From assembly GCF_053078305.1 (NCBI RefSeq), contig NZ_CP166879.1: DNA of 64,000 nucleotides; one strand, 5' to 3'. Shown here piece after piece: positions 23,876-49,781 of the stretch. Position 1 is the stretch's first letter. Each line of letters opens with the position of its first letter. A program made the position numbers and the translations under genes. The notes beneath the pieces were generated by a model that had not been told where the DNA came from, searched no databases, and worked only from the letters and a program-made list of their open reading frames with translations.

Positions 23876-23951
23876 GCCCGGATAGCTCAGTCGGTAGAGC
23901 AGGGGATTGAAAATCCCCGTGTCGGTGGTTCGATTCCGCCTCCGGGCACCA
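23876..23951 (+). tRNA. pheU: tRNA-Phe (anticodon GAA), pheU-type locus
   Basis: 76 nt: GCCCGGA acceptor stem pairing with TCCGGGC, D-arm AGCTCAGTCGGTAGAGC, anticodon loop ATTGAAAAT (GAA), T-loop TTCGATT, 3' CCA; followed directly by an integrase gene. Confidence 0.95.
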
Positions 23952-24146: not shown

Positions 24147-25184
24147 TCAAGATTTATTCCCCCCTTTGCAAATCTTGCTCACTGTGCGCTCATCTGTATA
24201 CAAACTCAGGGCATCTTCCAGTGTCTGCGCTGCAGACTCCATACAGACATCAACATACCCCATGGTCGTTGTAAGACTCCTGTGTCCCAGTATGGATTTG
24301 ACCAGATGTAAATTACGTTCAGGATATTTCATCAGTCTGGTTGCCAGCGTATGTCTGAAACGATGTGGTGAAACAGGAAAACCACATTCTCGCGAAAGTC
24401 GCCGGAAAAATGAACGTACGGTCTGATGCGCCCGAACGGGACAGTACTGATATCTGTCGGCAGAGATCGGCTCACTGAAACGACAGACGTCAAAAAGATA
24501 GTCATCATCACCTGCCCCGCACTGACGGGCCCGCTCCAGCAGTTTTTCCATCGATACCTTCAGGGGAGCCACCAGAGGAACGCCCCATTCCCTGTGAGTT
24601 TTACTTCCCTCCAGCTTAAGATCAATTATGCTTTCATCCGGACAGACATCCCTCACACGGATATGCTTCAGTTGATTAAAGCGCATTCCGGTATAACGCA
24701 GAACATCCAGAACTGTCAGCCAGTACCAGGCAGGGTATATAGCATTGCGTCGACGACTATTCACCATGTTCTGCTCTTCCGCTTCTGCAAACCTCTGCAC
24801 AACCAGGTAAACCCTGAGCATCTGATTGTCACTCAGTGTCTTTTTCTTTTTTTCAGTACTCGCAACTGATGCTTCCACCAACGGGTTTTCTGTCTGAGGC
24901 AGCAGTTTCATCTTGATCCCGAATCCCATAATTGCCCGCAAGTGGGCCACCTTGTTATTCCAGGTCACCTCCCTGCGCTTCTGCTCTTTCAGGACATAAC
25001 GCCGGTATCGCTGAACATCACGGACAGTCACCTCCCCCGGCAAAATATCACCGATAAATTCCCTGAATACCCTGACAACTTTGCAGTAGCTCCACTCTGT
25101 ATCCGGCCGAAGATTCTTTGAAAAAAAGTACTCTTCCAGCAGTTGTTCCCAGGTGATTTTTGTGACGGAATCGTCATTCTGCAT
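24147..25184 (-). CDS. Tyrosine-type site-specific integrase (island integrase)
   Basis: Start MQNDDSVTKITWEQLL (ATG 25184); catalytic signatures TGMRFNQL, HRFRHTLATRL and LGHRSLTTTMGYV; adjacent to the tRNA 3' end. Confidence 0.85.
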   Translation of the reverse strand: MQNDDSVTKITWEQLLEEYFFSKNLRPDTEWSYCKVVRVFREFIGDILPGEVTVRDVQRYRRYVLKEQKRREVTWNNKVAHLRAIMGFGIKMKLLPQTENPLVEASVASTEKKKKTLSDNQMLRVYLVVQRFAEAEEQNMVNSRRRNAIYPAWYWLTVLDVLRYTGMRFNQLKHIRVRDVCPDESIIDLKLEGSKTHREWGVPLVAPLKVSMEKLLERARQCGAGDDDYLFDVCRFSEPISADRYQYCPVRAHQTVRSFFRRLSRECGFPVSPHRFRHTLATRLMKYPERNLHLVKSILGHRSLTTTMGYVDVCMESAAQTLEDALSLYTDERTVSKICKGGNKS

Positions 25185-25251
25185 TATATATTCCCCTTGT
25201 TTACTGTGCTCCCGCACTCTCCGGTCAAATTCTGCACATCATCGCCTTTAC

Positions 25252-26739
25252 TCACCCGAAAACAATAAGCGGGCTGTCTCCGGGAACCGTAATATTCCCG
25301 TACAGAAACCTGCCCTTAACCAGATATCCCGAAACCATTTTGTAACGTCCGGAATGTTCTGCGTCACTATAAAGACGGGCCTGAAAAAAACGCTCTCCTG
25401 AACGTACCTTATGGATACCTGCCCGTTCAAAGAGCGACTGAACATAACGACGATCCTGCCCGGAACCACTCTCCTTCAGAAAACGATAAAAAATCCCCGG
25501 GGCACACAGAAAAACATATCCGGAAACAACATGAACATTTGAATCAACGCTGTTAACCGAAAGTGAACCCTCCCTCAGCCCCTCTTTTAACCATCTGATA
25601 AATTCACTCTCTACCCTGCTATCCTCTGTCAGGGAAAACTCTGCCGTTTTTTCCACTGTTTCCGGGATACGGTTTCCCTGATTTTCTGTTACACATCCGC
25701 TCTCTTCCGGTAACTCAATACCGCTTTCTTTATCCGGCGGCACGCCTGACGCTATCTGCCCTCCCTCATCCGACAAATCAGCAGCAGAAAACAGCGTAAG
25801 GAGCATTCCGGTATCAGCATCAGTTTCGTTCCCCTCATCCACCTCCTGTTCCGCTGTCCGGCCCTCATTTTCGGCATCCTCCACTGGCGACTGTACAACC
25901 GGCAACGGCTGAATGACGCTTTCTGCTGAAATTGCTGCTGACTGCAGCAGTACCGGAACAACCTCAGCCACCGGAACTTCGGCCACATCTCCTGCAGCGA
26001 GGGGACTCACGACTTCCTCCATAGCTTCCTGTAATACTGTACGTATCAGTGCCATTTCAGGATGCTGATGCCAGACTGCTCCGGCAAGATTCTGTAATGC
26101 CCCCGGGACAGTGGCAAGCCAGGCTCCCGCCTCTCCGGGCAGCAGTTGTCCCGCCATCAGGGCTGCCAGTTGCCGTCCCTCCGTTCCCTGGCAGGGCATC
26201 TTCCTGAACCGGAACCGGTATACGCCCTCAGGTACAGATATCCCCGGCTGCCAGCATCTGCCGTCGGCCTGTTCGCCTTCCAGTTCCGCCAGCAACGGCA
26301 GGTGATAAAACAGAGCCGACCAGAACACCACCATGTTCCACACACTCCCCTGCGCGGCCTGCTCTTCTGCTGTCGCTCCCGGTGGAAACATTCTGCCTCT
26401 GGCCAGCCGGACAGCATACGTCGTGAACTGCAGGGTCAGGTCACCAAAACCACCGGTGTAACCCCAGCGACCTTCTGCTGTGGCCGGCAGATTCTGACTG
26501 ACAGACAACAACTGATGCACAGGATCAAGACAAAGGCGCTGATACATATCCACCGGCATGGAACTGTTTTCCCATAACTGTTTCAGACACCTTTTCCTGA
26601 ACGGTGTGGATACCAGTACATCAGCCGGCAATGGTGTAAAATACCCCTCCGGCACCGTTTCCCCGGGAATATCCGTCCGGACATCAGAACATTCTGTCTT
26701 CACAGGAAATAACCTTTTCAGGCGTTCAAGCATGCCCAT
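25252..26739 (-). CDS. Hypothetical protein (495 aa) with an acidic low-complexity central region; operon partner of the helicase
   Basis: Long ORF whose start overlaps the stop of the upstream helicase gene by 14 nt; no motif I can assign. Confidence 0.5.
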   Translation of the reverse strand: MGMLERLKRLFPVKTECSDVRTDIPGETVPEGYFTPLPADVLVSTPFRKRCLKQLWENSSMPVDMYQRLCLDPVHQLLSVSQNLPATAEGRWGYTGGFGDLTLQFTTYAVRLARGRMFPPGATAEEQAAQGSVWNMVVFWSALFYHLPLLAELEGEQADGRCWQPGISVPEGVYRFRFRKMPCQGTEGRQLAALMAGQLLPGEAGAWLATVPGALQNLAGAVWHQHPEMALIRTVLQEAMEEVVSPLAAGDVAEVPVAEVVPVLLQSAAISAESVIQPLPVVQSPVEDAENEGRTAEQEVDEGNETDADTGMLLTLFSAADLSDEGGQIASGVPPDKESGIELPEESGCVTENQGNRIPETVEKTAEFSLTEDSRVESEFIRWLKEGLREGSLSVNSVDSNVHVVSGYVFLCAPGIFYRFLKESGSGQDRRYVQSLFERAGIHKVRSGERFFQARLYSDAEHSGRYKMVSGYLVKGRFLYGNITVPGDSPLIVFG

Positions 26740-28216
26740 TCTCCTGAACCCGACCTGATGTGTCGTACCCGGTCCCCCGCAGACCTTCAGTTTTCTGCTG
26801 TTCTTCTGCCAGTTGGTGCATCAGGTCATTCAGTACCAGCGTCCTGAGGGCCCGGGTGACAGCCACATATAACAGACAGGTTTCATCATGACGCTCGGCC
26901 TCCGTCATCAGCGGAACCGTGATATCCTGGAAATCCTCATCCAGCATTACAACCGGCCACTCCAGCCCCTTGCTCCGGTGTGCCGTTGACACCGTGATAT
27001 CTGCATCCTGCTCATTCGTTACCGTATACTGCCGGAGAAGTTCCAGTTTTTTCGGTAACGGAAAACACAACTCCAGAAGCCGAAGGGACTGATTCATCTC
27101 CACATCCTTCGTGGATTTTGCAATATATTTATATTCTTCAAAATTCCTGTAGTCCCGGCGCAGCCTGTCTGAATGCATCCGTTCCGGCATATCAACCTGG
27201 AACCAGTAGAGATCCTCAAGTTCCCCGGTCCTGTAACCTTCGATTCCCCCCACCCAGTAAACCTTTTGCCCTTTCATTGCCGCCATCAGCGCAGTACCAA
27301 TCACACCCGCGACAGTACGACTGAGTACCGTGTAATGCCCCTGCAGATGTTCACGCGCATGGCATTTCAGCAATACCTCATCATCACCACCACAACCTTT
27401 CACCTCTCGTGTTTCACCTTCACGCTGCAGAAGCAGATTTGCCATACGAGCCACCGCCGGACCAAAACGGAAACTCTGTGTCAGCCACAACCGGTCCGCA
27501 TTCTTCAGTGCAGGATGGGAAAGCGCATTATTCGCACCCCGAAAGCGGTAAATCTGTTGATAACAATCTCCAACAAGGACCACCCGACACTTCTGCCCCA
27601 GAACCAGAGCAGTGGTCACCGGATTCGCATCCTGCGCCTCATCAAACAGGATGGTGTCCCATCGGTGAGACAGGTCTGCACCGGACAACTGGAAGAGTTT
27701 CAGATAAGTATCGTGCGTCACCGGGAACGTCCCCCCGGGGTTGCTCATTTCGTTCCAGAGCAACTGCACCGCCCGAAGCGCATCTGCTGGCGGAACACCC
27801 CGCATCTCATCCTTATCCGGCAGGTGATGCAGGCCCGGTACCGCATCAGCAGAACAGATAAAATGATTCAGCCCCGTCCCTGCCACCCGTGCCAGAGCCC
27901 AGTATCGTGTATTCAGCTTTCTCGCCACATCAGTAATACGTAATCCCGGAACCAGCCGATGACGGTAGTGTCTTCCAACCCGGGCATACGCCAGCTGATG
28001 TGACGTTCTGCATTCCACGTTAAAGGGAAATTTACGCTCTGCCTCATCACGTATTGCCCGGTTATAGGCAAGATAGAGCATACGGCTGTCCGGACTGGCC
28101 CGGGCAAACTGCACCAGCGTACTCGTCTTCCCTGTGCCGGAAAACGCATTCACAACCAGTTGCTGCCCCTGCCAGTTAATAATGGCGTACTGTTCATCTG
28201 TGGGATTAAAAGACAT
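26726..28216 (-). CDS. UvrD/Rep-like superfamily 1 DNA helicase
   Basis: Start MSFNPTDEQYAIINWQ (ATG 28216); Walker A GTGKTS, motif II FDEAQD, C-terminal VAVTRA-type motif. Confidence 0.8.
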   Translation of the reverse strand: MSFNPTDEQYAIINWQGQQLVVNAFSGTGKTSTLVQFARASPDSRMLYLAYNRAIRDEAERKFPFNVECRTSHQLAYARVGRHYRHRLVPGLRITDVARKLNTRYWALARVAGTGLNHFICSADAVPGLHHLPDKDEMRGVPPADALRAVQLLWNEMSNPGGTFPVTHDTYLKLFQLSGADLSHRWDTILFDEAQDANPVTTALVLGQKCRVVLVGDCYQQIYRFRGANNALSHPALKNADRLWLTQSFRFGPAVARMANLLLQREGETREVKGCGGDDEVLLKCHAREHLQGHYTVLSRTVAGVIGTALMAAMKGQKVYWVGGIEGYRTGELEDLYWFQVDMPERMHSDRLRRDYRNFEEYKYIAKSTKDVEMNQSLRLLELCFPLPKKLELLRQYTVTNEQDADITVSTAHRSKGLEWPVVMLDEDFQDITVPLMTEAERHDETCLLYVAVTRALRTLVLNDLMHQLAEEQQKTEGLRGTGYDTSGRVQENGHA

Positions 28217-28447
28217 GTATTCTCTTCTCCGGAAAAACATTTCCGTAATCTGATGCATCAGGGGTATGCCCACCACAAATAACTCTGTACAGCAACAGAA
28301 AAATTTCCCTGGTCATATGATGAATTAATCATCGCCATCACACCGGATGCTTCTCATCCTGTCCTCAGAAAGACAGGTGGTCTCCTGTCTGCCGCGCTTA
28401 TCCAGGATACCGGGACCTGAAAGGTCATAATCTGGCAGGAAAAAATA

Positions 28448-30124
28448 ATGTCCGAAGTAAAAAAACACGTTTCTTATTCATTAACAGTTGCAGCTATGCT
28501 GTCAGCCGCCATCGTCTGTCAGACAGCACATGCTGATATCAACACACCGAACATCACCGGAGAAAAAAACAATACAACAACACGATTCTCCGGAAATATT
28601 TACGGCAGTGAAAATACTGTCACATCAGAGTCAAACAGTCTGGTTGTGGGTAACAGTAATTCCGTGGAGGGAGGGTATAACAACATTGTTATTGGTAATT
28701 CCTCCACGGTCAAAGCTTCCGGTTTGATCAGAAAAGTGGGCGAAGATATTGTGCTGGATGGTTACAGCGTCAGCCTCGGTAATGCCACCAGAATTAACGG
28801 TGATTCATCTGTTGCCATAGGTCTGACATCGTCCGTAACCGGGAACGACTCCGTGGCACTGGGCAGTCATTCCAGTGCTAACGGAAACAATATCGTATCC
28901 GTCGGCTCTGACACACTGAAACGCCGCATCACAAATCTGGCACAGGGGAAAGATGACCATGATGCGGTAAATCTGATGCAGATGACCAGTGCTGTTAACC
29001 GGGAAGCTGGAGAAAGAATAAAATCAACAAACAACCTGCAGAATCAGCTTAATACCCTCTCTGGTCAGGTCATAACTGAAACCAGGGCCCGAACAGAAGG
29101 TGATGCAGCAGCGCTGGCTGCAGCCAGAGCCCACAGCGATGAAAACGACAAAAGAACACTGGTCAGTGCGAATACCTATGCTGACCAGAAAGAAACCGCC
29201 ATCAATAACCGTACTGACGGATTACTGACGACCGAACGCCAGGCACGCACCGCAGGCGATACTGCAACTCTGGCTGCTGCCAGAACGCACAGCGATGAAA
29301 ACAACAAAAGAACACTGATCAGTGCGAATACCTATGCTGACCAGAAAGAAACCGCCATCAATAACCGTACTGACGGATTACTGGCTACAGAACGCCAGGC
29401 ACGCACCGCAGGCGATACTGCAACTCTGGCTGCTGCCAGAACGCACAGCGATGAAAACAACAAAAGAACACTGGTCAGTGCGAATACTTATGCTGACCAG
29501 AAAGAAACCGACATCAATAACCGTACTGACGGATTACTGGCTACAGAACGCCAGGCACGCACCGCAGGCGATACTGCAACTCTGGCTGCTGCCAGAACGC
29601 ACAGCGATGAAAACAACAAAAGAACACTGATCAGTGCGAATACCTATGCTGACCAGAAAGAAACCGCCATCAATAACCGTACTGACGGATTACTGACGAC
29701 CGAACGCCAGGCACGCATCGCAGGTGATGCCGCAACTCTGGCAACAGCAGCGGCATACAGTGACGCCGGGGATTCACTGACACTGAAACAGGCAACAGCC
29801 TACAGCGATATCAGTACCCGCCGGGCACTGTCAGAGGCCAATCGTTATACCGACAACAAATTCAGAAACCTGAGCAATAAAATTGAACGGGCAGAAAAAA
29901 GACTTAATGCAGGCATCGCCGGAGTGACAGCAATATCCTCCATCCCCTATGTGGCTGAAAATTCTTTTTCATACGGGATCGGCGTGGGTAACTATCAGAA
30001 CGCTAATGCTGTGGCCGCAGGCATTCAGTATAAAACATCACGTAATACCAATATACGCCTCAACATCTCCTGGGACTCATCTCATAACACCGCGATTGGT
30101 GCAGGGGTTGCCGGCGGCTGGTAA
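28448..30124 (+). CDS. Trimeric autotransporter adhesin (YadA-like; Eib/Saa-like size class)
   Basis: Signal peptide (AAMLSAAIVCQTAHA); head repeats (NSVEGGYNNIVIGNSS, SVAIGLTSSVTGNDSVALG); coiled-coil stalk with tandem repeats; C-terminal YadA anchor ending NISWDSSHNTAIGAGVAGGW. Confidence 0.8.
   Translation: MSEVKKHVSYSLTVAAMLSAAIVCQTAHADINTPNITGEKNNTTTRFSGNIYGSENTVTSESNSLVVGNSNSVEGGYNNIVIGNSSTVKASGLIRKVGEDIVLDGYSVSLGNATRINGDSSVAIGLTSSVTGNDSVALGSHSSANGNNIVSVGSDTLKRRITNLAQGKDDHDAVNLMQMTSAVNREAGERIKSTNNLQNQLNTLSGQVITETRARTEGDAAALAAARAHSDENDKRTLVSANTYADQKETAINNRTDGLLTTERQARTAGDTATLAAARTHSDENNKRTLISANTYADQKETAINNRTDGLLATERQARTAGDTATLAAARTHSDENNKRTLVSANTYADQKETDINNRTDGLLATERQARTAGDTATLAAARTHSDENNKRTLISANTYADQKETAINNRTDGLLTTERQARIAGDAATLATAAAYSDAGDSLTLKQATAYSDISTRRALSEANRYTDNKFRNLSNKIERAEKRLNAGIAGVTAISSIPYVAENSFSYGIGVGNYQNANAVAAGIQYKTSRNTNIRLNISWDSSHNTAIGAGVAGGW
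29132..29755 (+). repeat. Four tandem copies of a 156-bp (52-codon) in-frame repeat inside the adhesin stalk
   Basis: Unit starts at 29132, 29288, 29444 and 29600 (CACAGCGATGAAAAC...), near-identical; encodes HSDENNKRTL(V/I)SANTYADQKETAINNRTDGLL(T/A)TERQARTAGDTATLAAART. Confidence 0.9.
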
Positions 30125-30363
30125 ATAATCTTGCGTACATACGGCATTATGGTATTCCATAATCACATTAATTCAGTACGCAACACAGCCCCATCCGGAA
30201 CAGACCACTGGACTGAGCGGGATAATCAAGGAAAAAGGGCGCGCAGTGAGGTCAGCCTTCACAACAATCCGGCGGCAGATTTCCTGCCGCCGTGTTGCCC
30301 GTTAACATTTAACTTCGTGGGCTGACGTTGCCACAAGCACCGTATTTCCCTGATTTATTCTGT

Positions 30364-30852
30364 TTATTTTATTGTGGATAATGATGCCAATGGCATGAAT
30401 AAAGTTCTTCCGGACTCCGGGAACGCCATAAAGCCATAATGTTTGTAAAATGCGACTGCCGTGTCATCTTTTGCATCAACAATAAGCGCATATGCTGCAA
30501 TTTCAGATGTGTATGCACGATATAGCGCATCAGCTAAAAGTGCTCCCCCAAGCCCCGTTCCTTTTGATGACAGACTTACTGCCAGTCGTCCCATACGAAT
30601 AGCCGGAATAGTGGGATATCGCGGAAGCTTTTTTCTCAAATGCTCAGGTAAGTCAGTTAATAATATACTGGCCGCTGATAACGTATAGTATCCGATGATA
30701 TGATGATCGTTATCTACAGCGACAAAACAGGCCGCGATGCGTCGTCGAATATCCTGTGTGACATGCTCTTTTATGTAACGGTCCAGAGCATCAGAGCCAC
30801 ATAAAAATGAGGTTCTGTCATATGTGCTGTTAAATGGTGTCAGTTGAAACAT
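30364..30852 (-). CDS. GNAT-family acetyltransferase toxin (TacT/KacT/ItaT-like type II toxin)
   Basis: 162 aa with GNAT acetyl-CoA motif GTGLGGALLADAL; immediately downstream of, and co-oriented with, a DUF1778-type antitoxin gene (5-bp gap). Confidence 0.75.
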   Translation of the reverse strand: MFQLTPFNSTYDRTSFLCGSDALDRYIKEHVTQDIRRRIAACFVAVDNDHHIIGYYTLSAASILLTDLPEHLRKKLPRYPTIPAIRMGRLAVSLSSKGTGLGGALLADALYRAYTSEIAAYALIVDAKDDTAVAFYKHYGFMAFPESGRTLFMPLASLSTIK

Positions 30853-30857
30853 TATAT

Positions 30858-31139
30858 TTATTTTGTGTACAGCATATTATTACGGCGTTTAAAGGCCCGT
30901 TTAAGCGCATCATTCGGCTCTGTTGGTGACAGTAATGCCTGAGCAAAAATTTCCTGATCTGTCCGGGACAGTCGGATTATATCGGTTTGTTCGATAGCGC
31001 GTTGGGCCGCATCCTGAACGGCAGCAATGATAAAATCGGTCATAGTGCGCCCCTGGATTTCTGCAGCGCGCTTCAGCATGGCATGTAGTTCTGTGCTGAT
31101 CCTTGCTTCCAGTCGGGCAGTTTGTGTTGCAGATGGCAT
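30858..31139 (-). CDS. DUF1778-type ribbon-helix-helix antitoxin (TacA/KacA-like)
   Basis: 93 aa, RLEARISTELHAMLKRAAEIQGRTMTDFIIAAV (RHH fold), upstream partner of the GNAT gene. Confidence 0.75.
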   Translation of the reverse strand: MPSATQTARLEARISTELHAMLKRAAEIQGRTMTDFIIAAVQDAAQRAIEQTDIIRLSRTDQEIFAQALLSPTEPNDALKRAFKRRNNMLYTK

Positions 31140-31157
31140 GATTTGTACCTCCTGAAT

Positions 31158-31184
31158 ACACTGTACGGCAAATTGCCGTATTGT
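31158..31184. promoter_or_regulatory. Palindromic candidate operator upstream of the toxin-antitoxin operon
   Basis: TACGGCAA-a-TTGCCGTA perfect 8-bp arms (31164-31180) inside a longer imperfect dyad, about 25 bp upstream of the antitoxin start. Confidence 0.45.
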
Positions 31185-31556
31185 GCAAATTACACTCTGA
31201 CACCGGGACGGCAGACAGACATTCTGCCTGAAAAGAAAAATCAGATTCAGACAAAACTATCCGGGGGATGTTAACGCCACGATCTTTGACCATTGCATAC
31301 AGATAAAAGCTCAGATTATTTACCAGCAGTGACATCCGGAGTACACCGGGATTTTATCTGTGAGTGAACATACCCGGGCAAAAAAATCCCCCGAATTCAG
31401 GGGGGTGTCAAAGAGGAATTATGTATATTGGTTATTATAATGAGCACGCCTCCGGTATTCCGCGACGAATGTTCACGTGGTGGCATGAACGGCCCGGAAA
31501 CGTGCTCTTCTGATTTTTAACGTAAATTTACACTAAAGGCAACTCTGATACTGCCT

Positions 31557-32132
31557 TCACCGGATATAGGAGAAGGCCGTCGTGACCCGCTTCACTCCGC
31601 TCACCCTACTGGCAACATCTGCTGCCGCTCGCCCTTCCTGCTCTGTAACCAGGCCCAGTAAAAAGACTTCGCTGTTTTCTGTCACCACCTTGACACTGGA
31701 TGATTTGACACGGGCACTTGTGAGTAACTGAGAACGAATTTTTGTCGTAAGCCAGGCATCACCTGCCATTATGACCGGACTGACGGGTGTCCCCTGCCGG
31801 ATTTCATTATAGACCTCCTGAACACCATCGACACCGAGTGCTATCTGACGGGCACGGGCAGATAATTCACGGCCCGGAGACTGACCGATCAGCAGCACGC
31901 GTCCCTGATATGCAATCTCACTGATACGTGCTTCTTTTCTGATTTGTTCATCTTTTGAAAGTGCACTGCTGACCCTCAGCTCCAGCACTTCATCATCCAC
32001 CTGCGCTCCGACACTGCGTGGGTCGGTTGCTGCCTTTGTCCCGACAGCAGCTGTACCCACCACAGCGGCAGCCACGCACCCCTGTAACAATAAGGCTGAA
32101 GTAAGGACAACAGCAGAATATAATAAACGCAT
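31557..32132 (-). CDS. BON-domain outer-membrane lipoprotein, DolP/YraP paralog
   Basis: 191 aa; lipobox LLLQGC then VAAAVVGTAAVGTKAATDPRSVG and two BON-like segments ending VSGVKRVTTAFSYIR; closely resembles core DolP but sits in the island. Confidence 0.8.
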   Translation of the reverse strand: MRLLYSAVVLTSALLLQGCVAAAVVGTAAVGTKAATDPRSVGAQVDDEVLELRVSSALSKDEQIRKEARISEIAYQGRVLLIGQSPGRELSARARQIALGVDGVQEVYNEIRQGTPVSPVIMAGDAWLTTKIRSQLLTSARVKSSSVKVVTENSEVFLLGLVTEQEGRAAADVASRVSGVKRVTTAFSYIR

Positions 32133-32438
32133 ATCTCCCCCGGAATTGTTTTGATTTTTACTTCATATTCCCGGAATTTATCGTACAAAAAGTTTACCTT
32201 CAGTGAAACAAAACAAGCTACAGACTGTTATTATCCTCCGGCACAGCCGGAAACAGCGGATGCGTTACGTGGCATATCTGTATCTGTCAGACGGAAAGAT
32301 TTATATCGGATATGGATGTACTGGAATTTAATATTGATCATGTTTTTTGCACGAAAACTTTGATACCGTCGTAAAGATTCTTTTTTTAACTATCTGGTTC
32401 GCTGAACAGGATCTCCTTTTCGTTATACACAGGCTGAA

Positions 32439-32467
32439 AGGCACCGTGGAGCCCCCGGTGCCTTTTT
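32439..32467. terminator. Hairpin with T tract downstream of the ydcH-like gene (possibly bidirectional)
   Basis: GGCACCG-tggagcccc-CGGTGCC followed by TTTTTC on the plus strand. Confidence 0.35.
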
Positions 32468-32509
32468 CATAAAACAGAGAAAACACGTCTTTGAATATAC
32501 CGTTTATGA

Positions 32510-32737
32510 TTACCGTTCGCCCTTTTCTGACTCATCTTCAAGGATTTTCTGGATTTCTCTTTTGATCTCAAGTTTTTCAAGCTTCAGCCTGACCACTTTC
32601 GTCGAATACGCTGAACCAAATTCATCTTCAATTCTTTTTATTTCGTGATCAAGTTTATTATGCTTTTCAAATAAAGAATCAAAGCGTTTATGATTTCCTT
32701 TCAATGCTGAAATCAGTTCTCTGTACTCCGGGAACAT
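32510..32737 (-). CDS. YdcH-family (DUF465) small protein
   Basis: 75 aa, MFPEYRELISALKGNHKRFDSLFEKHNKLDHEIKRIEDE, resembles E. coli YdcH. Confidence 0.7.
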   Translation of the reverse strand: MFPEYRELISALKGNHKRFDSLFEKHNKLDHEIKRIEDEFGSAYSTKVVRLKLEKLEIKREIQKILEDESEKGER

Positions 32738-33846
32738 TGTTTTTATCTCCTTTCATCAACACTGTAACAATACATATAAACATTAATATTATTAAAGATT
32801 CTCACCATCAATATTCGCAGTGAATAATGCAGCATCTCATATTCACATCCTGCAGAGAAAACCCCTCCGGAGAGGGGTGAGTGTAGCGTAATGGAGTGTT
32901 ATGTAGCATGGTGCCGGGTGCCTCCCGGTGAGTTCAGTATCAGCACCTGAACCCGCACAGATAAGGGATGTGACCAAACACCTACGATACTGATATGCCC
33001 CGCCGCTCAGGGGGATTCACCATGCAGTATTTTTTTAACAAATATCCCGTAAGACCGACAATAATCCACTGACTGAACTGTGAGGTATTTAACATTTACA
33101 GATGACTGACTGTGGTGATCAGAGGTATTACAGTCATCCCCCTGTGGCTGCAGTCCGACCATACCATAACCAGCCATACGTCTTACCCGGAAAGCAAATG
33201 GAGCTTTTTGCCATAAACAACACTCTCCGGCTTCAACAAATGGAGCAGAGAATATCTTCAGAAAGTAACAATCAGTTAAAAACAGATCTTTTTTGTATTC
33301 CGTAAATTTTTCAGAAGAGAAAAAGAATTAATTGTCGCCAACGCCTTCAACAGATCGCATCATCAACGAATGATAACAACCTGAAGGATACCGCGATGGA
33401 GTTGACTGTAGACCTGCTAAAAAACCTTAACAACATCAGACAAAATGCTACTATATATGTTCACGCATACCACTATACTGATGATGAAAAATGCGTTATG
33501 GTGCCACGGATATCTTTACCATCACTGAAATTAACTCCGTTGCAATCAGAAATAATTATTCTGACATCTTCTTAATGGAGTCAATTATATAAGGCACGAC
33601 GGGTATGTTCAGGGATATGAAGAAAAAAATGTGGCAACTTTCACAATACAGGAGGAGGGACACCATCGTTTCAAAGCAGACTTATCACAAAATGGGGAAA
33701 GTGATATAGCCAGCAATGTACTAAATCACTGGCTACATCGTATACATAAAACAGATATCATTGTTCTGTCTGTTGTTCTTACAGAATAAATCCTGTTACC
33801 TCCTGAATGTTACAAGGTTTTATATTTATCCTATGAGCATACGTAC

Positions 33847-34128
33847 GTGAAAACTAATAAAAAAGGCACAACATGGCACATTTTTTACCGTGAAAATTCA
33901 GGCGCGGAAGTTTTGCTTGAAATACCATCATTTCGGGAATGTCTTTCAGTATCTAAAGAATTAATGACCCCATCAAATTACATGATATGCATAGAAAAAA
34001 ATGGCGAAAGAATAAAACGCCGGGACAGGGAAATCATCGCTGGCTCTAACAAATGGATTAACTGCCCACCTGATAACTTCGAAATATCAGGTGAGCTAAT
34101 AACCATTAACAGAATTATTAAAAAGTAA
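33847..34128 (+). CDS. Hypothetical small protein (AT-rich region)
   Basis: 93-aa ORF only; no recognisable motif. Confidence 0.25.
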   Translation: MKTNKKGTTWHIFYRENSGAEVLLEIPSFRECLSVSKELMTPSNYMICIEKNGERIKRRDREIIAGSNKWINCPPDNFEISGELITINRIIKK

Positions 34129-34250
34129 CTCCGGATTCAGACAATGCATTAAGCAAGGCACTATAACAAGCAACGGGTTCATTTTTTGCGGGAGAATGCC
34201 TGTAAGATATCTCTGTGCCAGCACTACCCCTCTATTTTTATAAAACACCT

Positions 34251-34751
34251 TTAACAAACCTCGTCATTCTGATAAACAGAAGCATTCTCCTCATGATGTA
34301 ATTCACCACAGACAGCCCCTTTCCTGTTTAATTTTGCCTGATAGTGTAAATCTGGATATAACTTCACAATATATCGAAGAAACACGGAGTAAGATATATG
34401 ACTGAATAACGCCTCATGCACATTTTTCAGCAAACAACCGGAATTAACCATGAGAGCCATCTCAGAATGTTGTTTCTGCATAAATACAGCAACAGTACTG
34501 CGATTAAAAAGAGCATTTTCATGTAACTCACTTGCATCACGTCTCAGTGAAAATACAAAACCATTCTGTGAAAACGTCAGTTCCGGGTGTTTTTCCTTCA
34601 GTAATCTGTAAATATCTGGCAGTCTCATTCCATCCTTAATCCAGAGTGCAATGGCGTCACGCTCCTGGTTGATTAAGTTTTTTATCTTATTTTTTTCTGG
34701 TATAATCTTACCTTTCATATTATCTCCCTCAGGAACAACAAAGAAGTTCAC
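34251..34751 (-). CDS. Hypothetical protein (AT-rich region upstream of the Type III R-M locus)
   Basis: 166-aa ORF; alternative start MKGKIIPEK; no recognisable motif. Confidence 0.3.
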   Translation of the reverse strand: MNFFVVPEGDNMKGKIIPEKNKIKNLINQERDAIALWIKDGMRLPDIYRLLKEKHPELTFSQNGFVFSLRRDASELHENALFNRSTVAVFMQKQHSEMALMVNSGCLLKNVHEALFSHISYSVFLRYIVKLYPDLHYQAKLNRKGAVCGELHHEENASVYQNDEVC

Positions 34752-34893
34752 ATATACAGAACCAGCTTTGTCTACATACCCGGAATTCAGTAAAGAAACA
34801 TAATCTATAAGACTTACTCACTTTAACAAAACAACATTCCTGGATAAAATAATATCCGATGAAATAATCTCCGCATAAATACATGAGGCTGCC

Positions 34894-35118
34894 ATGACAC
34901 GCAACGCAACGCAACGCAACGCAACGCAACGCAACGCAACGCAACGCAACGCAACGCAACGCAACGCAACGCAACGCAACGCAACGCAACGCAACGCAAC
35001 GCAACAATATGCTCGCCTGAACTCTCTCCGTCAAGTACCTCTACCTCCGTGCTTTCTGGAGGTACTGTATGAATATACGCAACAATCATCTACCGGGAAC
35101 AGAAACTCTTTTTTCTGA
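34894..35118 (+). CDS. Candidate leader ORF containing the pentanucleotide tract and overlapping the mod start
   Basis: ATG 34894 preceded by GAGG (34885-34888); reads MT(RNATQ)x7 through the repeat and ends at 35118, 50 nt beyond the mod ATG; coding status unproven. Confidence 0.35.
   Translation: MTRNATQRNATQRNATQRNATQRNATQRNATQRNATQQYARLNSLRQVPLPPCFLEVLYEYTQQSSTGNRNSFF
34899..35005 (+). repeat. Perfect pentanucleotide simple-sequence repeat (GCAAC)21
   Basis: 21 uninterrupted GCAAC units at 34901-35005 (tract with partial unit starts 34899), ending 63 bp upstream of the mod ATG. Confidence 0.97.
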
Positions 35119-37105
35119 AACTGAAACTGCGAACAGTAAACAACTTGCTGTTTTGAAAACTAACTTTCCACAGTGTTTCGATAAAAACGGAGCTTTCATT
35201 CAGGAAAAGCTGCTTGAGATCATCAGAGCATCAAATGTTGAAATCTCTAAAGAGTCATACTGCTTAAACTGGCTTGGCAAATCCTATGCTCGCCTGCTGG
35301 CTAACCTACCACCAACGACATTGCTGTCAGAAGATAAAGACCATAACCGACGTGAAGAGAACAAGAACAGTCAAAATCTGTTAATCAAAGGGGATAACCT
35401 TGAGGTATTAAAGCATATGGTTAATGCTTATTCTGAAAAGGTTAAAATGATTTATATCGATCCGCCATATAACACGGGTTCTGATGGGTTCGCCTATAAT
35501 GATGATCGCAAATTTACACCAGAACAGCTTTCTGATCTGGCGGGTATCGATCTTGATGAGGCTAAACGTATACTTGAATTTACCACGAATGGTTCAAGCA
35601 GCCATAGCGCATGGTTAACGTTCATTTATCCTCGTTTATATATTGCTCGTGAGCTTCTACGTGAAGATGGTGTGATATTTATTTCGATTGACGAAAATGA
35701 ATTAAATCAACTTAAAACTATTTGTGATGAAATTTTTGGCGAAGCAAATTTCATAGAAAATATTGTATGGAATAAACGTATCCCTAAAAATGATAAGGGT
35801 ATTGGTAATATCCATGAGTACATCCTTGCTTATGCGAAGAATAACGAAATAAGTAAAGAATTTTTAATGCGGAAAGATGGTATTGATGATGTATATCAGT
35901 TTATTGAAAAGTTAAAAAAGGAAAAGGTGCCATTAGATAAAGCAGAGCAGCAACTCAAAAAATTCTACAGCTCCAACGGATATGATCGTGGAATTACTCT
36001 TTACAACGGTTTGAACGAGGATTATAGGCCATGGGGTAAAATTAATATGAGTTGGCCTAATGCAGATTCATTTGGACCCACGTATGAAGTATTGCACCCT
36101 TTGACTAATAACCCTGTCAAAATCCCAGACAGAGGCTGGCGTTGGAAAGAAGGCACTTTTAATCATATTGCAAAAAGAATAGATGGAAAGTATGCAGATA
36201 TCAAAAAACTACATGATGGTAGCGTTATTTGTGGTGGAATTTGGTTTGCCCGTACAGAAAAAACCCAACCCAGTTCGGTTAAATTTTTAGATGAAGTTGA
36301 AGAGTTTTTACTAAGATCAATTATTTCAACTAAAAGTGATGGTGGTGTTGAGGTTGAAAATCTTTTTGGTGGGAAAGGATATTTCTCCTACCCGAAGCCA
36401 ACAAGTTTAATAAAAACACTATTTGGTTCAGTAAGAACCGAAGATAAAGACATTTATCTTGACTTTTTTGCTGGCTCTGGAACTACAGCTCATGGTATTC
36501 TGGAGTTAAATATTGAAGACGGCAGGAAAAGAAACTTCATCTGTGTTCAATTAGATGAAGAAACAGATAAAAAGAAACAAGCCTATAAAGAAGGGTATAA
36601 ATCCATCTTCAATATAACAAAAGACAGAATTATTAAGGCAGGAAAAAAGCTGAAAAAAGATAATCCTAATTATAATGGAGATTTGGGATTTAAAATATTT
36701 GAAACAGTTCATGATTTTCGAGCGAAAGATGAGTCTGAACTTACGCTTTCTAATCTTAGTTTCTTTGACGATGCTGTATTGACACCAGAGCAGTATGACA
36801 CTCTATTGACGACATGGTGCGTGTATGATGGCAGCTTGCTAACAACACCAATTGAAGATATTGACCTTAATGGCTACAAAGCACACTTGTGCGATGGTCG
36901 GCTATATCTAATTGCGCCTAATTTCACAAGTGAGGCTTTGAAAGCTTTACTTCAAAAGCTGGATGCAGACAAAGACTTTGCCCCTAACAAAGTTGTATTT
37001 TATGGCAGCAACTTCGAAAGTGCGAAACAGATGGAACTCAATGAAGCACTAAAAAGTTATGCTAATAAAAAATCTATTGATTTAGATTTGGTGGTAAGGA
37101 ACTAA
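35069..37105 (+). CDS. mod: Type III restriction-modification methyltransferase Mod (N6-adenine)
   Basis: 678 aa; GGAGG Shine-Dalgarno at 35058-35062; motif IV IYIDPPYNTG, motif I FFAGSGTTAHG; followed 2 bp later by res. Confidence 0.9.
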   Translation: MNIRNNHLPGTETLFSETETANSKQLAVLKTNFPQCFDKNGAFIQEKLLEIIRASNVEISKESYCLNWLGKSYARLLANLPPTTLLSEDKDHNRREENKNSQNLLIKGDNLEVLKHMVNAYSEKVKMIYIDPPYNTGSDGFAYNDDRKFTPEQLSDLAGIDLDEAKRILEFTTNGSSSHSAWLTFIYPRLYIARELLREDGVIFISIDENELNQLKTICDEIFGEANFIENIVWNKRIPKNDKGIGNIHEYILAYAKNNEISKEFLMRKDGIDDVYQFIEKLKKEKVPLDKAEQQLKKFYSSNGYDRGITLYNGLNEDYRPWGKINMSWPNADSFGPTYEVLHPLTNNPVKIPDRGWRWKEGTFNHIAKRIDGKYADIKKLHDGSVICGGIWFARTEKTQPSSVKFLDEVEEFLLRSIISTKSDGGVEVENLFGGKGYFSYPKPTSLIKTLFGSVRTEDKDIYLDFFAGSGTTAHGILELNIEDGRKRNFICVQLDEETDKKKQAYKEGYKSIFNITKDRIIKAGKKLKKDNPNYNGDLGFKIFETVHDFRAKDESELTLSNLSFFDDAVLTPEQYDTLLTTWCVYDGSLLTTPIEDIDLNGYKAHLCDGRLYLIAPNFTSEALKALLQKLDADKDFAPNKVVFYGSNFESAKQMELNEALKSYANKKSIDLDLVVRN

Positions 37106-37107
37106 TC

Positions 37108-40020
37108 ATGTCTAAAGGGTTCACATTCGAAAAAAATTTACCTCATCAAAAGGCTGGCGTTGATTCGGTAATGAATGTCTTTGTATCCGCCATACCTCAT
37201 CAGACGGATCATGTTGCAATTCGCCTGTTAGCTAATCCAGAACTGAATCTATCTGAACAACAATACTACAACAACATAAAAAATGTTCAGGAGTTCAATG
37301 GTATTGAGCACTCAAAAGATAATTACGATGCTAAAAGCAACGTAATTGATGTTTCTATGGAGACAGGTACAGGTAAAACTTATACTTACACCAAAACAAT
37401 TTTTGACCTGAACAAATCATTTGGTATTAACAAATTTATCATCATTGTTCCTACCCTATCGATCAAAGCCGGAACCGTTAACTTTTTAAAAAGCGATGCT
37501 ATAAAAGAACACTTTCGAGATGATTACGAGCGTGAACTAAAGACTTACGTTGTTGAAAGTCAGAAAAGTTCGGGTAAAAATACAAAATCGTATATGCCTC
37601 AAGCTATCCATGATTTTGTTGAAGCAAGTAATTTCAATAAGAAATATATACACATTCTTGTGATCAACTCAGGGATGATTAACTCTAAGTCTTTAACTGA
37701 CACTTATGATGTTGGCTTGCTTGATAATCAGTTTGATACCCCATTTTCTGCACTTAGTGCGATAAAACCATTCATTATCATTGATGAGCCTCATAAATTT
37801 CCTACTGGTAAAAAGACATGGGAACATATTCAAAAATTTAATGCCCAATATATCATCCGCTATGGCGCAACCTTTAGTGAAGGCTATAAGAACTTAGTTT
37901 ATCGTCTTACAGCCGTAGATGCCTTCAATGAAGATCTTGTTAAAGGTATTGATGCATACATTGAGGATATAGTTGGTGATGGTAATGCCAACCTCAAGTT
38001 GGTCAAATCTGACGGAAAAGAAGCTACATTTGAACTGAACGAAAATAATAATAAAAAAATTTTTAAGTTAGCCAAAGGTGAATCACTATCTAAGACGCAT
38101 AGTGCGATCCATGATTTAACTCTTGATGCTTTAAATAAGAATACAGCAGTGTTGAGTAATGGTATTGAGCTAAAAATTGGTAGTTCGATAAACCCCTATT
38201 CTTACGATCAGACACTTGCTGATAACATGATGCGTAAAGCTGTCAAAGAACACTTTAAGTTAGAAAAAGAGTATCTGACACAAAGGCCACGCATAAAACC
38301 TCTTACTCTTTTCTTCATTGATGACATTGAAGGCTATCGTGATGGTAATGATATTGCAGGAAGCCTGAAAACTAAGTTCGAAGAATACGTTTTGGCAGAA
38401 GCAAATGAACTGTTAAAAACAGAGAAAGATGAGTTTTACAGAAACTACCTTGAAAAAACTGTTAAGGATATATCTTCTGTTCATGGTGGTTATTTTTCAA
38501 AAGATAATAGTGATAAAGATGATAAAATTGAGCAGGAAATCAACGAAATCCTTCATGATAAAGAGCTTCTATTGTCTTTAGAAAATCCTCGCCGTTTCAT
38601 TTTCTCTAAATGGACGTTGCGTGAGGGATGGGATAACCCAAATGTCTTTCAGATTTGTAAGCTCCGTTCGAGCGGTAGCACCACATCTAAACTTCAGGAG
38701 GTAGGGCGTGGTTTACGTCTTCCAGTGAATGAATACATGTGCCGTGTGAAAAACCGCGATTTTACTCTCAACTATTATGTTGATTTTACGGAAAAAGATT
38801 TTGTTGATTCTCTTGTAAAAGAGGTTAATGATAGTTCTTTCAAAGAAACTGTTCCAGGTAAGTTTACTCAAGAACTTAAGGATAAAATCTTATCTCAGTA
38901 TCCTGAGCTTTCATCCAGAACACTCATGAATGAGATCTTTGATGCTGAAATTATTGATGATAATGAAAACTTCAAAGATTCCGATGCCTATAGCCGTTTA
39001 AAAGCAAAATATCCGGCTGCATTCCCTACCGGGGTGAAACCAACAAAAATAAAAAAAGCCACGGATGGAAAAAAGCGTACTAAAATGCGTATTGGTAAGT
39101 TCAGTGAGTTGAAAGAACTATGGGATTTGATCAATCAAAAAGTAGTAATTGAGTATAAAATAAATAGTGAAAATGAATTCTTATCCATTTTCAAATCATT
39201 CATGATTGAAGAAACAGATAGATTTACTAAATCAGGTGTTCATACTCGCATTGATAGAATTTATATTCATAATGATACGGCGATGTCGAAAAGTATCGTC
39301 AGTGACGATGATAACTTTGCTAAACTAAACACAATGAGCTATCGGGAATTTCTTGATAACTTATCACAAACTATTTTTGCTAAACACGATACCTTACATA
39401 AGGTTTTTTGTGATATAAAAGACACTATCAATATCACCGACTACCTGAACATTCAGACAATCAGAAAGATTAAATCTGGGTTTAGCAAGTATTTGTTGAA
39501 CAATTCATTTAACAAATTCAGCCTTGGATATAATGTAATTTCAGGCTCAATTCATCCTACAAAATTCACTAATGCAGACGGTAATCACCTGCATGAGGTA
39601 TTATCAGGTGATCTTGGAGTATTACAGGATAATACAAAAGCCCCCCTAGACTCTTATCTTTTTGAAGAAGTTTTTTATGATTCAGAGCTTGAAAGACTCA
39701 ATATAACAGACGGAGAGATCCACTCTGTTGCTGTTTTTACAAAGATACCGAAAAACTCAATTAAAATTCCAGTGGCAGGTGGATACACATATTCTCCTGA
39801 CTTTGCTTATGTTGTAAAAACAACAAAGGGTGACTACCTTAACTTTATTATTGAAACAAAAAATGTCGAAGGTAAAGAAAGTTTACGTAAAGAAGAACTG
39901 GATAAAATAAAGCATGCACAAAAACTTTTCGAACAGGTAAGTAAATCTGTAAAAGTAACTTTTATAACTCAATTCTCAGGTGACAGAATCCATGATCTGA
40001 TAAAAAATGTGATTCAGTAA
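37108..40020 (+). CDS. res: Type III restriction enzyme Res subunit (SF2 helicase-like ATPase/nuclease)
   Basis: 970 aa; Walker A TGTGKTYT, DEAH-like IIIDEPHKF; tightly coupled to mod. Confidence 0.9.
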   Translation: MSKGFTFEKNLPHQKAGVDSVMNVFVSAIPHQTDHVAIRLLANPELNLSEQQYYNNIKNVQEFNGIEHSKDNYDAKSNVIDVSMETGTGKTYTYTKTIFDLNKSFGINKFIIIVPTLSIKAGTVNFLKSDAIKEHFRDDYERELKTYVVESQKSSGKNTKSYMPQAIHDFVEASNFNKKYIHILVINSGMINSKSLTDTYDVGLLDNQFDTPFSALSAIKPFIIIDEPHKFPTGKKTWEHIQKFNAQYIIRYGATFSEGYKNLVYRLTAVDAFNEDLVKGIDAYIEDIVGDGNANLKLVKSDGKEATFELNENNNKKIFKLAKGESLSKTHSAIHDLTLDALNKNTAVLSNGIELKIGSSINPYSYDQTLADNMMRKAVKEHFKLEKEYLTQRPRIKPLTLFFIDDIEGYRDGNDIAGSLKTKFEEYVLAEANELLKTEKDEFYRNYLEKTVKDISSVHGGYFSKDNSDKDDKIEQEINEILHDKELLLSLENPRRFIFSKWTLREGWDNPNVFQICKLRSSGSTTSKLQEVGRGLRLPVNEYMCRVKNRDFTLNYYVDFTEKDFVDSLVKEVNDSSFKETVPGKFTQELKDKILSQYPELSSRTLMNEIFDAEIIDDNENFKDSDAYSRLKAKYPAAFPTGVKPTKIKKATDGKKRTKMRIGKFSELKELWDLINQKVVIEYKINSENEFLSIFKSFMIEETDRFTKSGVHTRIDRIYIHNDTAMSKSIVSDDDNFAKLNTMSYREFLDNLSQTIFAKHDTLHKVFCDIKDTINITDYLNIQTIRKIKSGFSKYLLNNSFNKFSLGYNVISGSIHPTKFTNADGNHLHEVLSGDLGVLQDNTKAPLDSYLFEEVFYDSELERLNITDGEIHSVAVFTKIPKNSIKIPVAGGYTYSPDFAYVVKTTKGDYLNFIIETKNVEGKESLRKEELDKIKHAQKLFEQVSKSVKVTFITQFSGDRIHDLIKNVIQ

Positions 40021-46954: not shown

Positions 46955-47515
46955 TCAGCAGGGCTGTGCGACGATTCCATCACCCTGCAGACCAAACCGG
47001 TAACGCAGGGTGGTCAGTTGCTCCGCCATACGGCAGGCAGCATGCCATGTCCTGCGACGGGATATCCGTCCGGTAAACCGGTTCAGATAAATGACCTCAC
47101 GCGGTAACGGCTGATACCATCCTGTGTACTCGTTGCGATACATTCCCTGCCGGTAATACAGGCAGGGTGTCCAGACACCGCCACGACGGAACATACAGAC
47201 CCGCACGCTCAGATTGCCGGCCGGATTAGTGTACCAGCGACTGTAATATGACAGGTTATTGCGGGAAAAAAACACCCGCAACTGAGCCGTCATTCGCCGG
47301 AAAAAAGAAGAGATGCCCGGTTCAGGGCACAAAATAAACGTTGACATAAAGACTCCTGTAAAAAAACGGGAGCCTTCGCCCCGACGGACAAAAACTCCCG
47401 TCAGGGTTAAAACACCACCAGTACAGCATGGTGTTGCTGTCAGAAAAAGCCCGTTAATAAAGGGCGCAGTTATAAAGAAACCTTCATCGTCATGACTGAC
47501 GATATCTGCTCTCAA
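46955..47515 (-). CDS. Hypothetical protein; 5' part overlaps the left direct repeat so true start is uncertain
   Basis: 186-aa ORF; alternative start MSTFILCPEPG; possibly a prophage-remnant family but not confirmed. Confidence 0.3.
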   Translation of the reverse strand: MRADIVSHDDEGFFITAPFINGLFLTATPCCTGGVLTLTGVFVRRGEGSRFFTGVFMSTFILCPEPGISSFFRRMTAQLRVFFSRNNLSYYSRWYTNPAGNLSVRVCMFRRGGVWTPCLYYRQGMYRNEYTGWYQPLPREVIYLNRFTGRISRRRTWHAACRMAEQLTTLRYRFGLQGDGIVAQPC

Positions 47516-47773
47516 AGGTGGGCAGATTTACCACCACCAGAAACATCCTGGCTGCACATCCCCTTTCAGGTTACGGGGGTGTTGATCACCCGAAGGCGTT
47601 CCTCTCAGATCAACGGAACATTGGTGCCCACCGAAGCGGGATGTGGTCACCCGAAGGCGCTCCTCTCAGACCACTTATGGAGCATTGGTGGTCGCCGAAG
47701 CGACATGTAGCCACCCGAAGGCGCTCCTCTCAGGCCACTTGTGGAGCATTGGTGGTCGCCGGAGCGACATATA
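47449..47773. repeat. Direct repeat copy 1 (about 325 bp) with three degenerate tandem ~63-bp sub-units
   Basis: Near-identical to 49782-50038 over about 255 bp; sub-units begin CACCCGAAGGCG(C/T)TCCTCTCAG at about 47584, 47647 and 47711. Confidence 0.9.
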
Positions 47774-49171: not shown

Positions 49172-49781
49172 ATTTCTCCCTGACGACACGGTTAAACGTT
49201 GCGATCCTTCGGGTAGTGACTGCCTGTGCGCCAGGGTAGCGCAGATTGTTTAGGTATTGAGGGGTAACAAATCGGTGTTGCACACCGACTGCAGCATTTG
49301 CTGTACCTGTCTCCAGGTCGCCCCCGACACCACCTCTAATAAGTGGTATCGCCGATTCGGCATCTCACTACATAAAACTCCTTAAAAAAACAATTGATTC
49401 TGCAAAAAACCATTTATGGACGTTATTCACAAAATCGTCCGTAAATTTGCAGAAGAGGTTGAAAAAACACTCTCACGCCGGGTCACTTCTTCAAATGTTA
49501 AAAAACATCACGTGAAACGGCAGTTCGTGCGGGTTCGTTAAGCAGACGCGCGTGCGTCACTTTGTCATCGTGACACGCTGACGAAAGTGACGCCGCGCAG
49601 CTTCAGACGCCAGATACACGCGTAAGCGACCAAATTTCAAATGGTCTTATACAGCGCGCACAGTCGCAGGAAGTGCTGGCAAACAAATGAAAAGAATAAA
49701 AGAAGTCAATACCGCCATTACGCAGTAAGAACATTCCGGCATCACCGGATGGATAAGGATCACACAACCACTGCTGTGTAT

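Follow-up and report, generated by a model that had tools for sequence, protein, structure and literature searches.

What does a stretch of about 1.1 kb encode when it carries GC-rich hairpins and short broken reading frames, but no gene of appreciable length? This question is raised by positions 32740 to 33850 of a 64,000-nt stretch of DNA (contig NZ_CP166879.1 of assembly GCF_053078305.1, referred to as "the window" in this study), which lie between a YdcH-like DUF465 gene on the minus strand and a PilI-like gene on the plus strand (Table 1). The original prediction was that the region contained no open reading frame above about 70 codons and might hold pseudogene remnants or a small RNA. 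The size limit holds, as the longest frame between the two flanking genes has 67 codons (33102-33305, plus strand) and the rest have 59 codons or fewer. Both guesses were borne out: a full-length STnc100 gene is present on the minus strand, and a conserved 130-amino acid reading frame is frameshifted in the window when compared with related islands. Taken together, it is likely that the left half is a self-contained gene for a trans-acting sRNA of the STnc100/PasD type, which came as a cassette from a prophage; the right half is a frameshifted gene of the island.

The Rfam scan suggested for this region was run over positions 30000-37000 with a permissive E-value threshold, and the STnc100 result was repeated on the whole window. 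STnc100 (RF02076) matched 32852-33054 on the minus strand over model positions 1-206 of 206, and its 138.7 bits (E = 1.9e-31) far exceed the gathering score of 47; the only other match within 30000-37000 was a chance match to SNORD95. The RNA in the window is a member of this family, as it matches the model over its whole length and exceeds the curated gathering score. The hairpin CCCCTC-cgga-GAGGGG, one of those reported at the outset, does exist, but it lies at 32862-32877, about 5 nt to the right of 32857-32872 where it had been placed, and it is the terminator of the sRNA gene. The other GC-rich hairpins of the region (CCGGG/CCCGG at 32914-32928 and CCCC/GGGG at 32999-33014) fall with it into this single match, and none of them is due to chance. 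The strand, the family and the union of all these hairpins in one RNA went beyond what the original prediction could show. RefSeq has no annotation under any of the matches to the sRNA region, and the GenBank records examined likewise carry no sRNA annotation. When all small ORFs in 32843-33789 were searched against Pfam (E<=1), two sub-threshold chance matches were obtained, to ParG (15.6 bits) and Ribosomal_L18 (13.4 bits).

Table 1. Features of the sRNA locus, the adjoining pseudogene and the surrounding island (window coordinates).
Feature	Position	Strand	Basis or remark
tRNA-Phe	23876-23951		start of island
Tyrosine integrase	24147-25217		
TraI_2 relaxase	25252-26739		
UvrD-like helicase	26726-28276		
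YadA-like adhesin	28448-30124		
GNAT acetyltransferase	30364-31139		Pfam; adjacent antitoxin is TacA in RefSeq
DolP-like BON lipoprotein	31557-32132		
YdcH-like DUF465 gene, 75 aa	32510-32737	-	PF04325 44.1 bits (cut-off 25); NF008505 equivalog 94 bits (cut-off 91)
Spacer, sRNA terminator to DUF465 start codon, 116 nt	32738-32853	-	poorly conserved; short palindromes (GTGAATA...TATTCAC)
STnc100-family sRNA, predicted ~171 nt	32854-33025	-	RF02076 match, fold, alignment with PasD1 5' end
U-tract UUUUCUCU	32861-32854	-	short
Terminator stem-loop	32878-32861	-	intrinsic, GC-rich
Single-stranded linker, candidate seed, 28 nt	32905-32878	-	unpaired in MFE fold
Hairpin 3 (CCGGG/CCCGG)	32928-32914	-	MFE fold, consensus
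Hairpin 2	32954-32930	-	MFE fold; covarying in consensus
Variable hairpin region	32998-32955	-	MFE fold
Hairpin 1 (CCCC/GGGG)	33014-32999	-	MFE fold, consensus
Closing helix, 8 bp (GCAUGGUG/CACCAUGC)	33025-33018 / 32913-32906	-	MFE fold
Predicted sigma-70 promoter	33026-33061	-	-35 TTGTCG (33061-33056), 18-nt spacer, extended -10 TGtTAAAAA (hexamer 33037-33032)
CRP-like site TGTTA-N6-TCACA	33079-33094	-	centred at -61.5 from predicted start
Element-free non-coding DNA	33095-33395	.	no Pfam match for small ORFs, no Rfam match at E<=1
Frameshifted conserved 130-aa hypothetical gene (ORF130)	33396-33789	+	extra T at 33562; truncated to 59 aa
PilI-like gene, 93 aa	33847-34128	+	PF10623 E 6.6e-9, 35.7 bits (cut-off 25); PilI in RefSeq relatives
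Type III restriction-modification system	35069-40020		

In minus-strand orientation, the terminator reads ACCCCUCUCCGGAGGGGU followed by UUUCUCU, which is the intrinsic terminator of the family. In the minimum free energy (MFE) fold of 33025-32852, the closing helix surrounds four hairpins, of which three are conserved and one is variable, and is followed by the 28-nt linker and the terminator. The MFE of this fold is -61.9 kcal/mol (z = -1.66), and 11 of 200 shuffled sequences folded equally well or better; since this is only a modest gain over shuffled sequences, thermodynamics alone provides weak evidence. RNAalifold, applied to 12 diverged copies, gave a consensus with the same architecture, whose predicted pairs are kept in the window sequence. 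Among its 36 pairs, eight show compensatory changes on both sides, six of these being in hairpin 2, and the closing helix together with hairpins 1 and 3 is almost invariant in sequence across the 12 copies. The window RNA therefore has every element by which STnc100 was judged, namely the closing helix, the CCCC/GGGG hairpin, the covarying hairpin 2, the CCGGG/CCCGG hairpin and the 3' terminator. The U-tract is short; this makes it weak for Hfq binding and may allow some read-through.

Promoter-like conservation is found immediately upstream of the RNA. The alignments, which comprised the window copy, island copies and prophage or phage copies, included 80 nt of upstream DNA, and in the alignments of 10 and 13 diverged copies both the TTG of the -35 element and the TTTGTTAAAA block vary hardly or not at all. 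In a table of upstream regions anchored on the GCAUGG start, with 21 distinct upstream sequences, three blocks (the TTG of the -35 element, the extended -10 element and TCACA) stand at fixed spacing across diverged copies. From canonical promoter geometry, transcription is predicted to start at G33025. PasD1 (NC_011601, 1060260-1060432, 173 nt) has an RNA-seq-estimated 5' end at 1060260 (PMC8550237 Table S6, Pearl Mizrahi et al.), and in our alignment (A2) this published end coincides exactly with the G of GCAUGGUGAAUCC, i.e. with the column of window position 33025. With this start and an end at about 32855, the RNA would therefore be about 171 nt long. The family alignments and the published PasD 5' end suggest that the true start of STnc100 RNA is GCAUGG, and positions 1-28 of the Rfam STnc100 model are probably promoter DNA and not RNA.

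The TCACA block is one half of a CRP-like site, and most family members retain both this half and its spacing. The site was recognised after the fact, by comparison with the CRP consensus (TGTGA-N6-TCACA) and the class-I position (-61.5). Its pattern is rare, with two matches in the window against 0.78 expected. Class-I control of the sRNA promoter by CRP is a prediction; it would give the STnc100 family a testable regulatory input.

How common is this RNA, and which of its parts vary? Megablast matches to the sRNA region were found in 921 of 5,426 complete E. coli genomes, with only 43 records being at least 95% identical. Phage copies of STnc100 are 60-90% identical, and the plasmid collection returned only weak matches or mislabelled chromosomal records. 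When the window was compared with an island variant (L010), the two were 92.8% identical overall, but the identity was distributed unevenly: 100% in the core (32907-32955), 97% in the promoter, 89% in the linker, 78% in the spacer to the DUF465 gene (where L010 has an 11-nt deletion) and 48% in the variable hairpin, while the coding sequence beside the spacer was 98.7% identical. The linker in the window is UACAUAACACUCCAUUACGCUACACUCA, in which ACACUC is present twice. This linker variant is private: the linker together with the terminator was found in 18 of the 5,426 E. coli genomes, and not one of 50,697 phage records contains it. The single difference from those 18 genomes is at 32878, with T here and C there, by which a G-U pair at the terminator base becomes A-U. 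Different family members combine the variable hairpin and the linker in different ways, which suggests that the two assort independently, by recombinational shuffling or seed swapping.

The genomic context sets the window copy apart from the family. All other copies examined are in lambdoid late regions, with the order Q, methylase/tRNAs/stx, STnc100, and then a DUF1737/NanS-p esterase, DUF6645 or a holin; such a location is typical of the family without defining it. The window copy, in contrast, is not located in such a late region between Q/tRNAs/stx and the esterase/lysis genes; it is in an ICE-like island, not a prophage. The island starts at the pheU locus, identified from the flanking genes (aspA-dcuA-cutA-dsbD-dicD, a flank that is 99.8% identical to many E. 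coli strains and marks the chromosome as E. coli), and the neighbours of the sRNA within the island include IS elements and pseudogenes. Strains OkiPb01714 (NZ_AP042687) and STEC17-190 (NZ_CP075649) are further carriers of this island. Beyond the type III restriction-modification system there are DUF1281 and ArdC, with STAXI and EFASI RNA motifs further on. An in-frame fusion of mod with the pentanucleotide repeat that precedes it was also considered, and was ruled out by a TGA in the frame of mod. Homology to prophage copies is confined to 33092-32847, and consists of the CRP-like site, which marks its left edge (~33092), the promoter, the RNA and the terminator. As this span exactly matches the cassette, a complete cassette therefore appears to have been transferred.

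The gene directly downstream of the sRNA and co-oriented with it had been called YdcH-like from the outset, and both Pfam and NCBIfam agree (Table 1). Twelve loci carrying this DUF465 gene were scanned with Rfam (10 from a protein look-up, plus L008 and L010), and STnc100 was found directly upstream and co-oriented in all of them. These loci have three distinct left-hand contexts, with STnc100 arranged in tandem at L014 and L019 and present as a hybrid at L020. The link to DUF465 is not a general trait of STnc100: a genome contig scan gave seven loci with the conserved 5' core (including E. albertii, Superficieibacter, Enterobacter and a Xanthomonas contig suspected of contamination), and DUF465 was present at none of them. 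DUF1737 was near three of the seven, downstream of the RNA where checked. Since none of these loci outside the island family has DUF465, the association between the sRNA and DUF465 is specific to it. In public assemblies this exact DUF465 protein is frequent, with 7,965 index blocks of the collection listing it.

Previous work on related RNAs provides the basis for proposing a function. STnc100 is a gammaproteobacterial sRNA of which lambdoid and Stx prophages of E. coli carry several copies; it is also found in Salmonella prophages, and one copy is located 75 nt downstream of stx2B (PMC12370729; Sakai VT2). In EDL933, 11 copies are transcribed according to RNA-seq, STnc100_4 has been confirmed by northern blotting, and the family is expressed in lysogens as are other prophage sRNAs (PMC5331693); copies in Salmonella LT2 have RpoD/RpoN ChIP-exo signals (PMC10794520). 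STnc100 and PasD have a common ancestor according to a 2026 bioRxiv preprint (10.64898/2026.05.13.724894), and PasD1 and PasD2 (EcOnc13 homologues of EPEC E2348/69) show Hfq-dependent stability, have mRNA partners in RIL-seq, carry a UGUGAG seed within the linker just before the terminator, and accumulate as a discrete 172-173-nt species on northern blots (PMC8550237).

The window RNA resembles both groups to different degrees. With STnc100 it shares the closing helix, hairpins 1-3, the terminator and the conserved promoter blocks upstream; its identity to phage copies is no more than 70-82%. It is an ordinary member of a known curated family, with only its location in an island rather than a prophage being new. 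With PasD it shares the 5' end, the promoter layout, the closing helix, hairpin 1, a single-stranded linker before the terminator and nearly the same length (172-173 nt versus about 171 nt predicted here). However, PasD has no CCGGG/CCCGG hairpin 3, its upstream region is without the CRP-like TCACA block, its linker is different, and so is its terminator, which in the window is of the CCCCUC type. As the alignment (A2) revealed neither a UGUGAG linker nor a PasD-type terminator in the window RNA, it does not belong to the PasD subfamily.

By analogy with PasD1 and PasD2, we propose that: the sRNA gene would be transcribed from its own sigma-70 promoter, possibly with class-I CRP input; the RNA would end at the intrinsic terminator (32878-32854); with the help of a chaperone it would act in trans and base-pair with mRNAs, using the linker immediately 5' of the terminator; the conserved multi-helix core would confer stability and bind protein; and the promoter-RNA-terminator cassette, an "RNA moron", would have passed from lambdoid prophages to the ICE-like island at pheU and become fixed beside the ydcH-like DUF465 gene. 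In this respect it would be comparable to phage "moron" cassettes and to AsxR and AgvB, which are also autonomous promoter-gene-terminator units in a mobile element. In Sakai VT2, AsxR directly adjoins STnc100 on the opposite strand; neither AsxR nor AgvB had an Rfam match in the window. Targets and Hfq dependence have been measured for PasD, whereas those of the window copy are suggested by that precedent. The analysis shows to which family the RNA belongs, how it is structured, that its promoter-like blocks are conserved, where it lies and that ORF130 is frameshifted, while transcription of the window copy, CRP control, dependence on a chaperone, the seed and the targets are predicted. A trans-acting role with the linker as seed is the best supported reading, given the PasD precedent and the fact that the core is invariant while the linker varies. 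RNAduplex was run with the 28-nt linker against 209 translation-initiation regions of the window; no local target emerged, since the best energy (-18.8 kcal/mol) was equalled or surpassed by 92 of 100 shuffled linkers.

The same invariance of the core could be read differently, in that the RNA might act through this structured part, by binding or sequestering a protein (ProQ, Hfq) or as a sponge, with the linker not being a seed. The loops (GGUGAAUCCCCC, CCGGGAGGCACCCGG) are as invariant as the stems across copies that are only about 70% identical overall, which exceeds what base-pairing alone needs, and the linker varies between copies and has no local target in the window. However, the linker seed and the Hfq-mediated mRNA partners of PasD are experimentally supported, the exchange of linkers as modules between copies agrees with a diversifying target specificity, and no protein partner is known. 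We found no evidence of anti-sRNA (sponge) activity for the window copy, and we consider action through the core to be unlikely.

The position of the RNA, co-oriented and just upstream of DUF465 in every DUF465 locus scanned, raises the question of whether it is instead a cis-acting leader, in which read-through of a weak terminator would let the structured RNA control the downstream DUF465 (and DolP-like) genes. The short U-tract would favour this, as would the spacer, which has no conserved promoter and in which the 11-nt deletion of L010 removes the best -35 candidate. In prophages, however, unrelated genes are found downstream (DUF1737/NanS-p esterase, DUF6645 or holin), and the RNA is therefore no leader specific to one gene; moreover, the canonical GC-rich terminator is conserved throughout the family and PasD is a discrete species. 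A leader function is accordingly quite improbable.

Alternatively, the sRNA region might be an inert fragment of a lambdoid prophage that was brought into the island by recombination and has no function today. The late-region location of all other copies examined, the IS elements and pseudogenes in the island and the rarity of the linker variant would all agree with such an origin. Nevertheless, what was captured is precisely a whole cassette and not a random piece, its core is 100% conserved while its flanks have diverged, the sole substitution in the terminator stem relative to close relatives (32878) keeps the base pair, and the cassette has been kept in three island contexts, at times in tandem. 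Loss of function is thus a very improbable explanation. Finally, translation of a very short peptide from the AUG at +3 (MVNPPERRGISVS), making the RNA a small mRNA or a dual-function RNA, is hardly credible, because even though this AUG is present in 12 of 13 aligned copies (PhiR5_2a has GCGUGG) and ribosome coverage exceeds a value of 1 for several EDL933 copies (PMC5331693), a Shine-Dalgarno sequence is absent, the AUG is part of the closing helix, variation in the codons after CCU follows hairpin pairing rather than coding, and neither length nor sequence is conserved across the variable region.

The trans-acting sRNA reading can be extended, though only tentatively. The island may have captured a prophage sRNA cassette that is activated by cAMP-CRP and equipped it with a private seed, the two ACACUC copies of the linker, so that a conjugative element would link control of host mRNAs to carbon status; we consider this possible but on the whole doubtful. 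If it were true, the adjoining ydcH-like DUF465 gene might act together with the sRNA, and the Rfam STnc100 model would misplace the 5' end by about 28 nt. As STnc100/PasD sRNAs have been described as prophage-borne, the presence of a complete cassette in a conjugative-type island implies that such cassettes move between kinds of mobile element. The value added for the family is modest, consisting of a revised 5' end, a promoter with a CRP-like site, and the island context.

The remainder of the region belongs to a different module. The short broken frames that had been noted here, 33396-33575 and 33631-33789, together represent one gene of 130 codons (ORF130), which the 1-nt insertion at 33562 has split in two. 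Relative to a related island (L001), this insertion leaves ORFs of 59 and 52 codons, and removal of the extra T restores a 130-amino acid ORF that differs from L001 in three codons with one amino-acid change. In close relatives, RefSeq annotates the counterpart of 33396-33788 as a hypothetical protein of 130 amino acids. The gene is intact in eight loci (L001, L009, L010, L011, L013, L016, L017 and L018), with DNA identities of 85-99%, and searches of Pfam, NCBIfam and PHROGs gave no match for its product. With this pseudogene and the sRNA gene, an apparently empty stretch that is unannotated in RefSeq has been accounted for, although this is mostly a matter of tidying the annotation.

Positions 33218-33395 are probably the upstream region of ORF130. 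In one island (L009), where neither the sRNA nor DUF465 is present, homology to the window begins at about 33145-33210; because L009 carries the ORF130/PilI-like module without the sRNA/DUF465 module, the junction between the two can be placed at about 33100-33210. Among diverged copies of ORF130, synonymous and nonsynonymous codon differences occur at a ratio of about 1:1, which indicates mild purifying selection on this gene. An independent nonsense mutation is present in the ORF130 copy of strain JNEC-KY171 (L023).

The number of STnc100 copies upstream of the YdcH-like gene (DUF465) differs among the loci compared with the window. Two copies stand in tandem in L014, and the same tandem pair was found at a further locus, L019. 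At another locus, L020, only one copy is present, and it is a hybrid: its 5' half matches the upstream tandem copy, its linker and terminator the downstream one. This copy looks like a recombination product. The short palindromes lying between the STnc100 terminator and DUF465 in the window may serve as an operator or as an RNA hairpin controlling DUF465. The counterpart of the second palindrome in L010, a related island locus, differs from that of the window in being perfect (TATTCAC-A-GTGAATA).

Coordinates of features in the window and in the compared loci
Feature	Locus	Position	Strand	Remarks
Tandem STnc100 copies	L014	2232-2419 and 2685-2886		Upstream of DUF465
Hybrid STnc100 copy	L020	2703-2889		Single copy
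Palindromes GTGAATA...TATTCAC and TATTC-ACTGC-GAATA	Window	32790-32850	-	
RefSeq pseudogene	L010	5491-5630		Window ~32885-33025
130-aa island gene	L023 (NZ_AP045167.1)	1197-1589		Nonsense codon at position 85
Type III R-M system	Window	35069-40020		Slot content
KwaA/KwaB-like (Kiwa) genes	L001	8095-9496		Slot content
SAVED / JAB (MPN) / ThiF-E1 set	L010	8147-11374		Slot content
(ACGCA) x 21.4, perfect	Window	34899-35005		64 nt upstream of mod
ORF upstream of mod	Window	34894-35118		Runs through repeat, overlaps mod start
mod (Type III R-M)	Window	35069 (start)		
STAXI motifs	Window	47476-47641 and 49872-50037	-	Scores above Rfam gathering scores
EFASI motif	Window	49214-49371	-	Score above Rfam gathering score
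Guanidine-II (mini-ykkC) riboswitch match	Window	9651-9697	-	50.4 bits; gathering score 32

The RefSeq pseudogene of L010, described as a "frameshifted, incomplete hypothetical protein", overlies the STnc100 RNA; since the gene there makes a non-coding RNA, this annotation is probably spurious. An 888-nt contig (contig_80) of the Xanthomonas pisi DSM 18956 assembly carries an STnc100 copy, AsxR and the start of DUF1737, and its STnc100 score (207.7 bits) equals that of the copy in the Stx prophage Sakai VT2; we suspect contamination of this assembly by E. coli Stx-phage DNA.

The 130-aa island gene is also inactivated in L023, by a nonsense codon that is independent of the frameshift in the window, suggesting recurrent loss of this gene. 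When the window is compared with L001, L010 and L011, the slot on the right-hand side of the PilI-like gene behaves as a defence-cargo hotspot; KwaA/KwaB-like genes fill it in L011 as well as in L001. The set found in L010 resembles CBASS. The pentanucleotide repeat preceding mod in the window may act as a phase-variable switch for the methyltransferase. In-frame fusion of the repeat with mod was also considered, and is blocked by a TGA in the mod frame.

EFASI RNAs are described as typically located near STAXI and integrases (PMC12370729), in agreement with a mobile-element setting. The Rfam scan also placed a Guanidine-II match in the core chromosome flank of the window.
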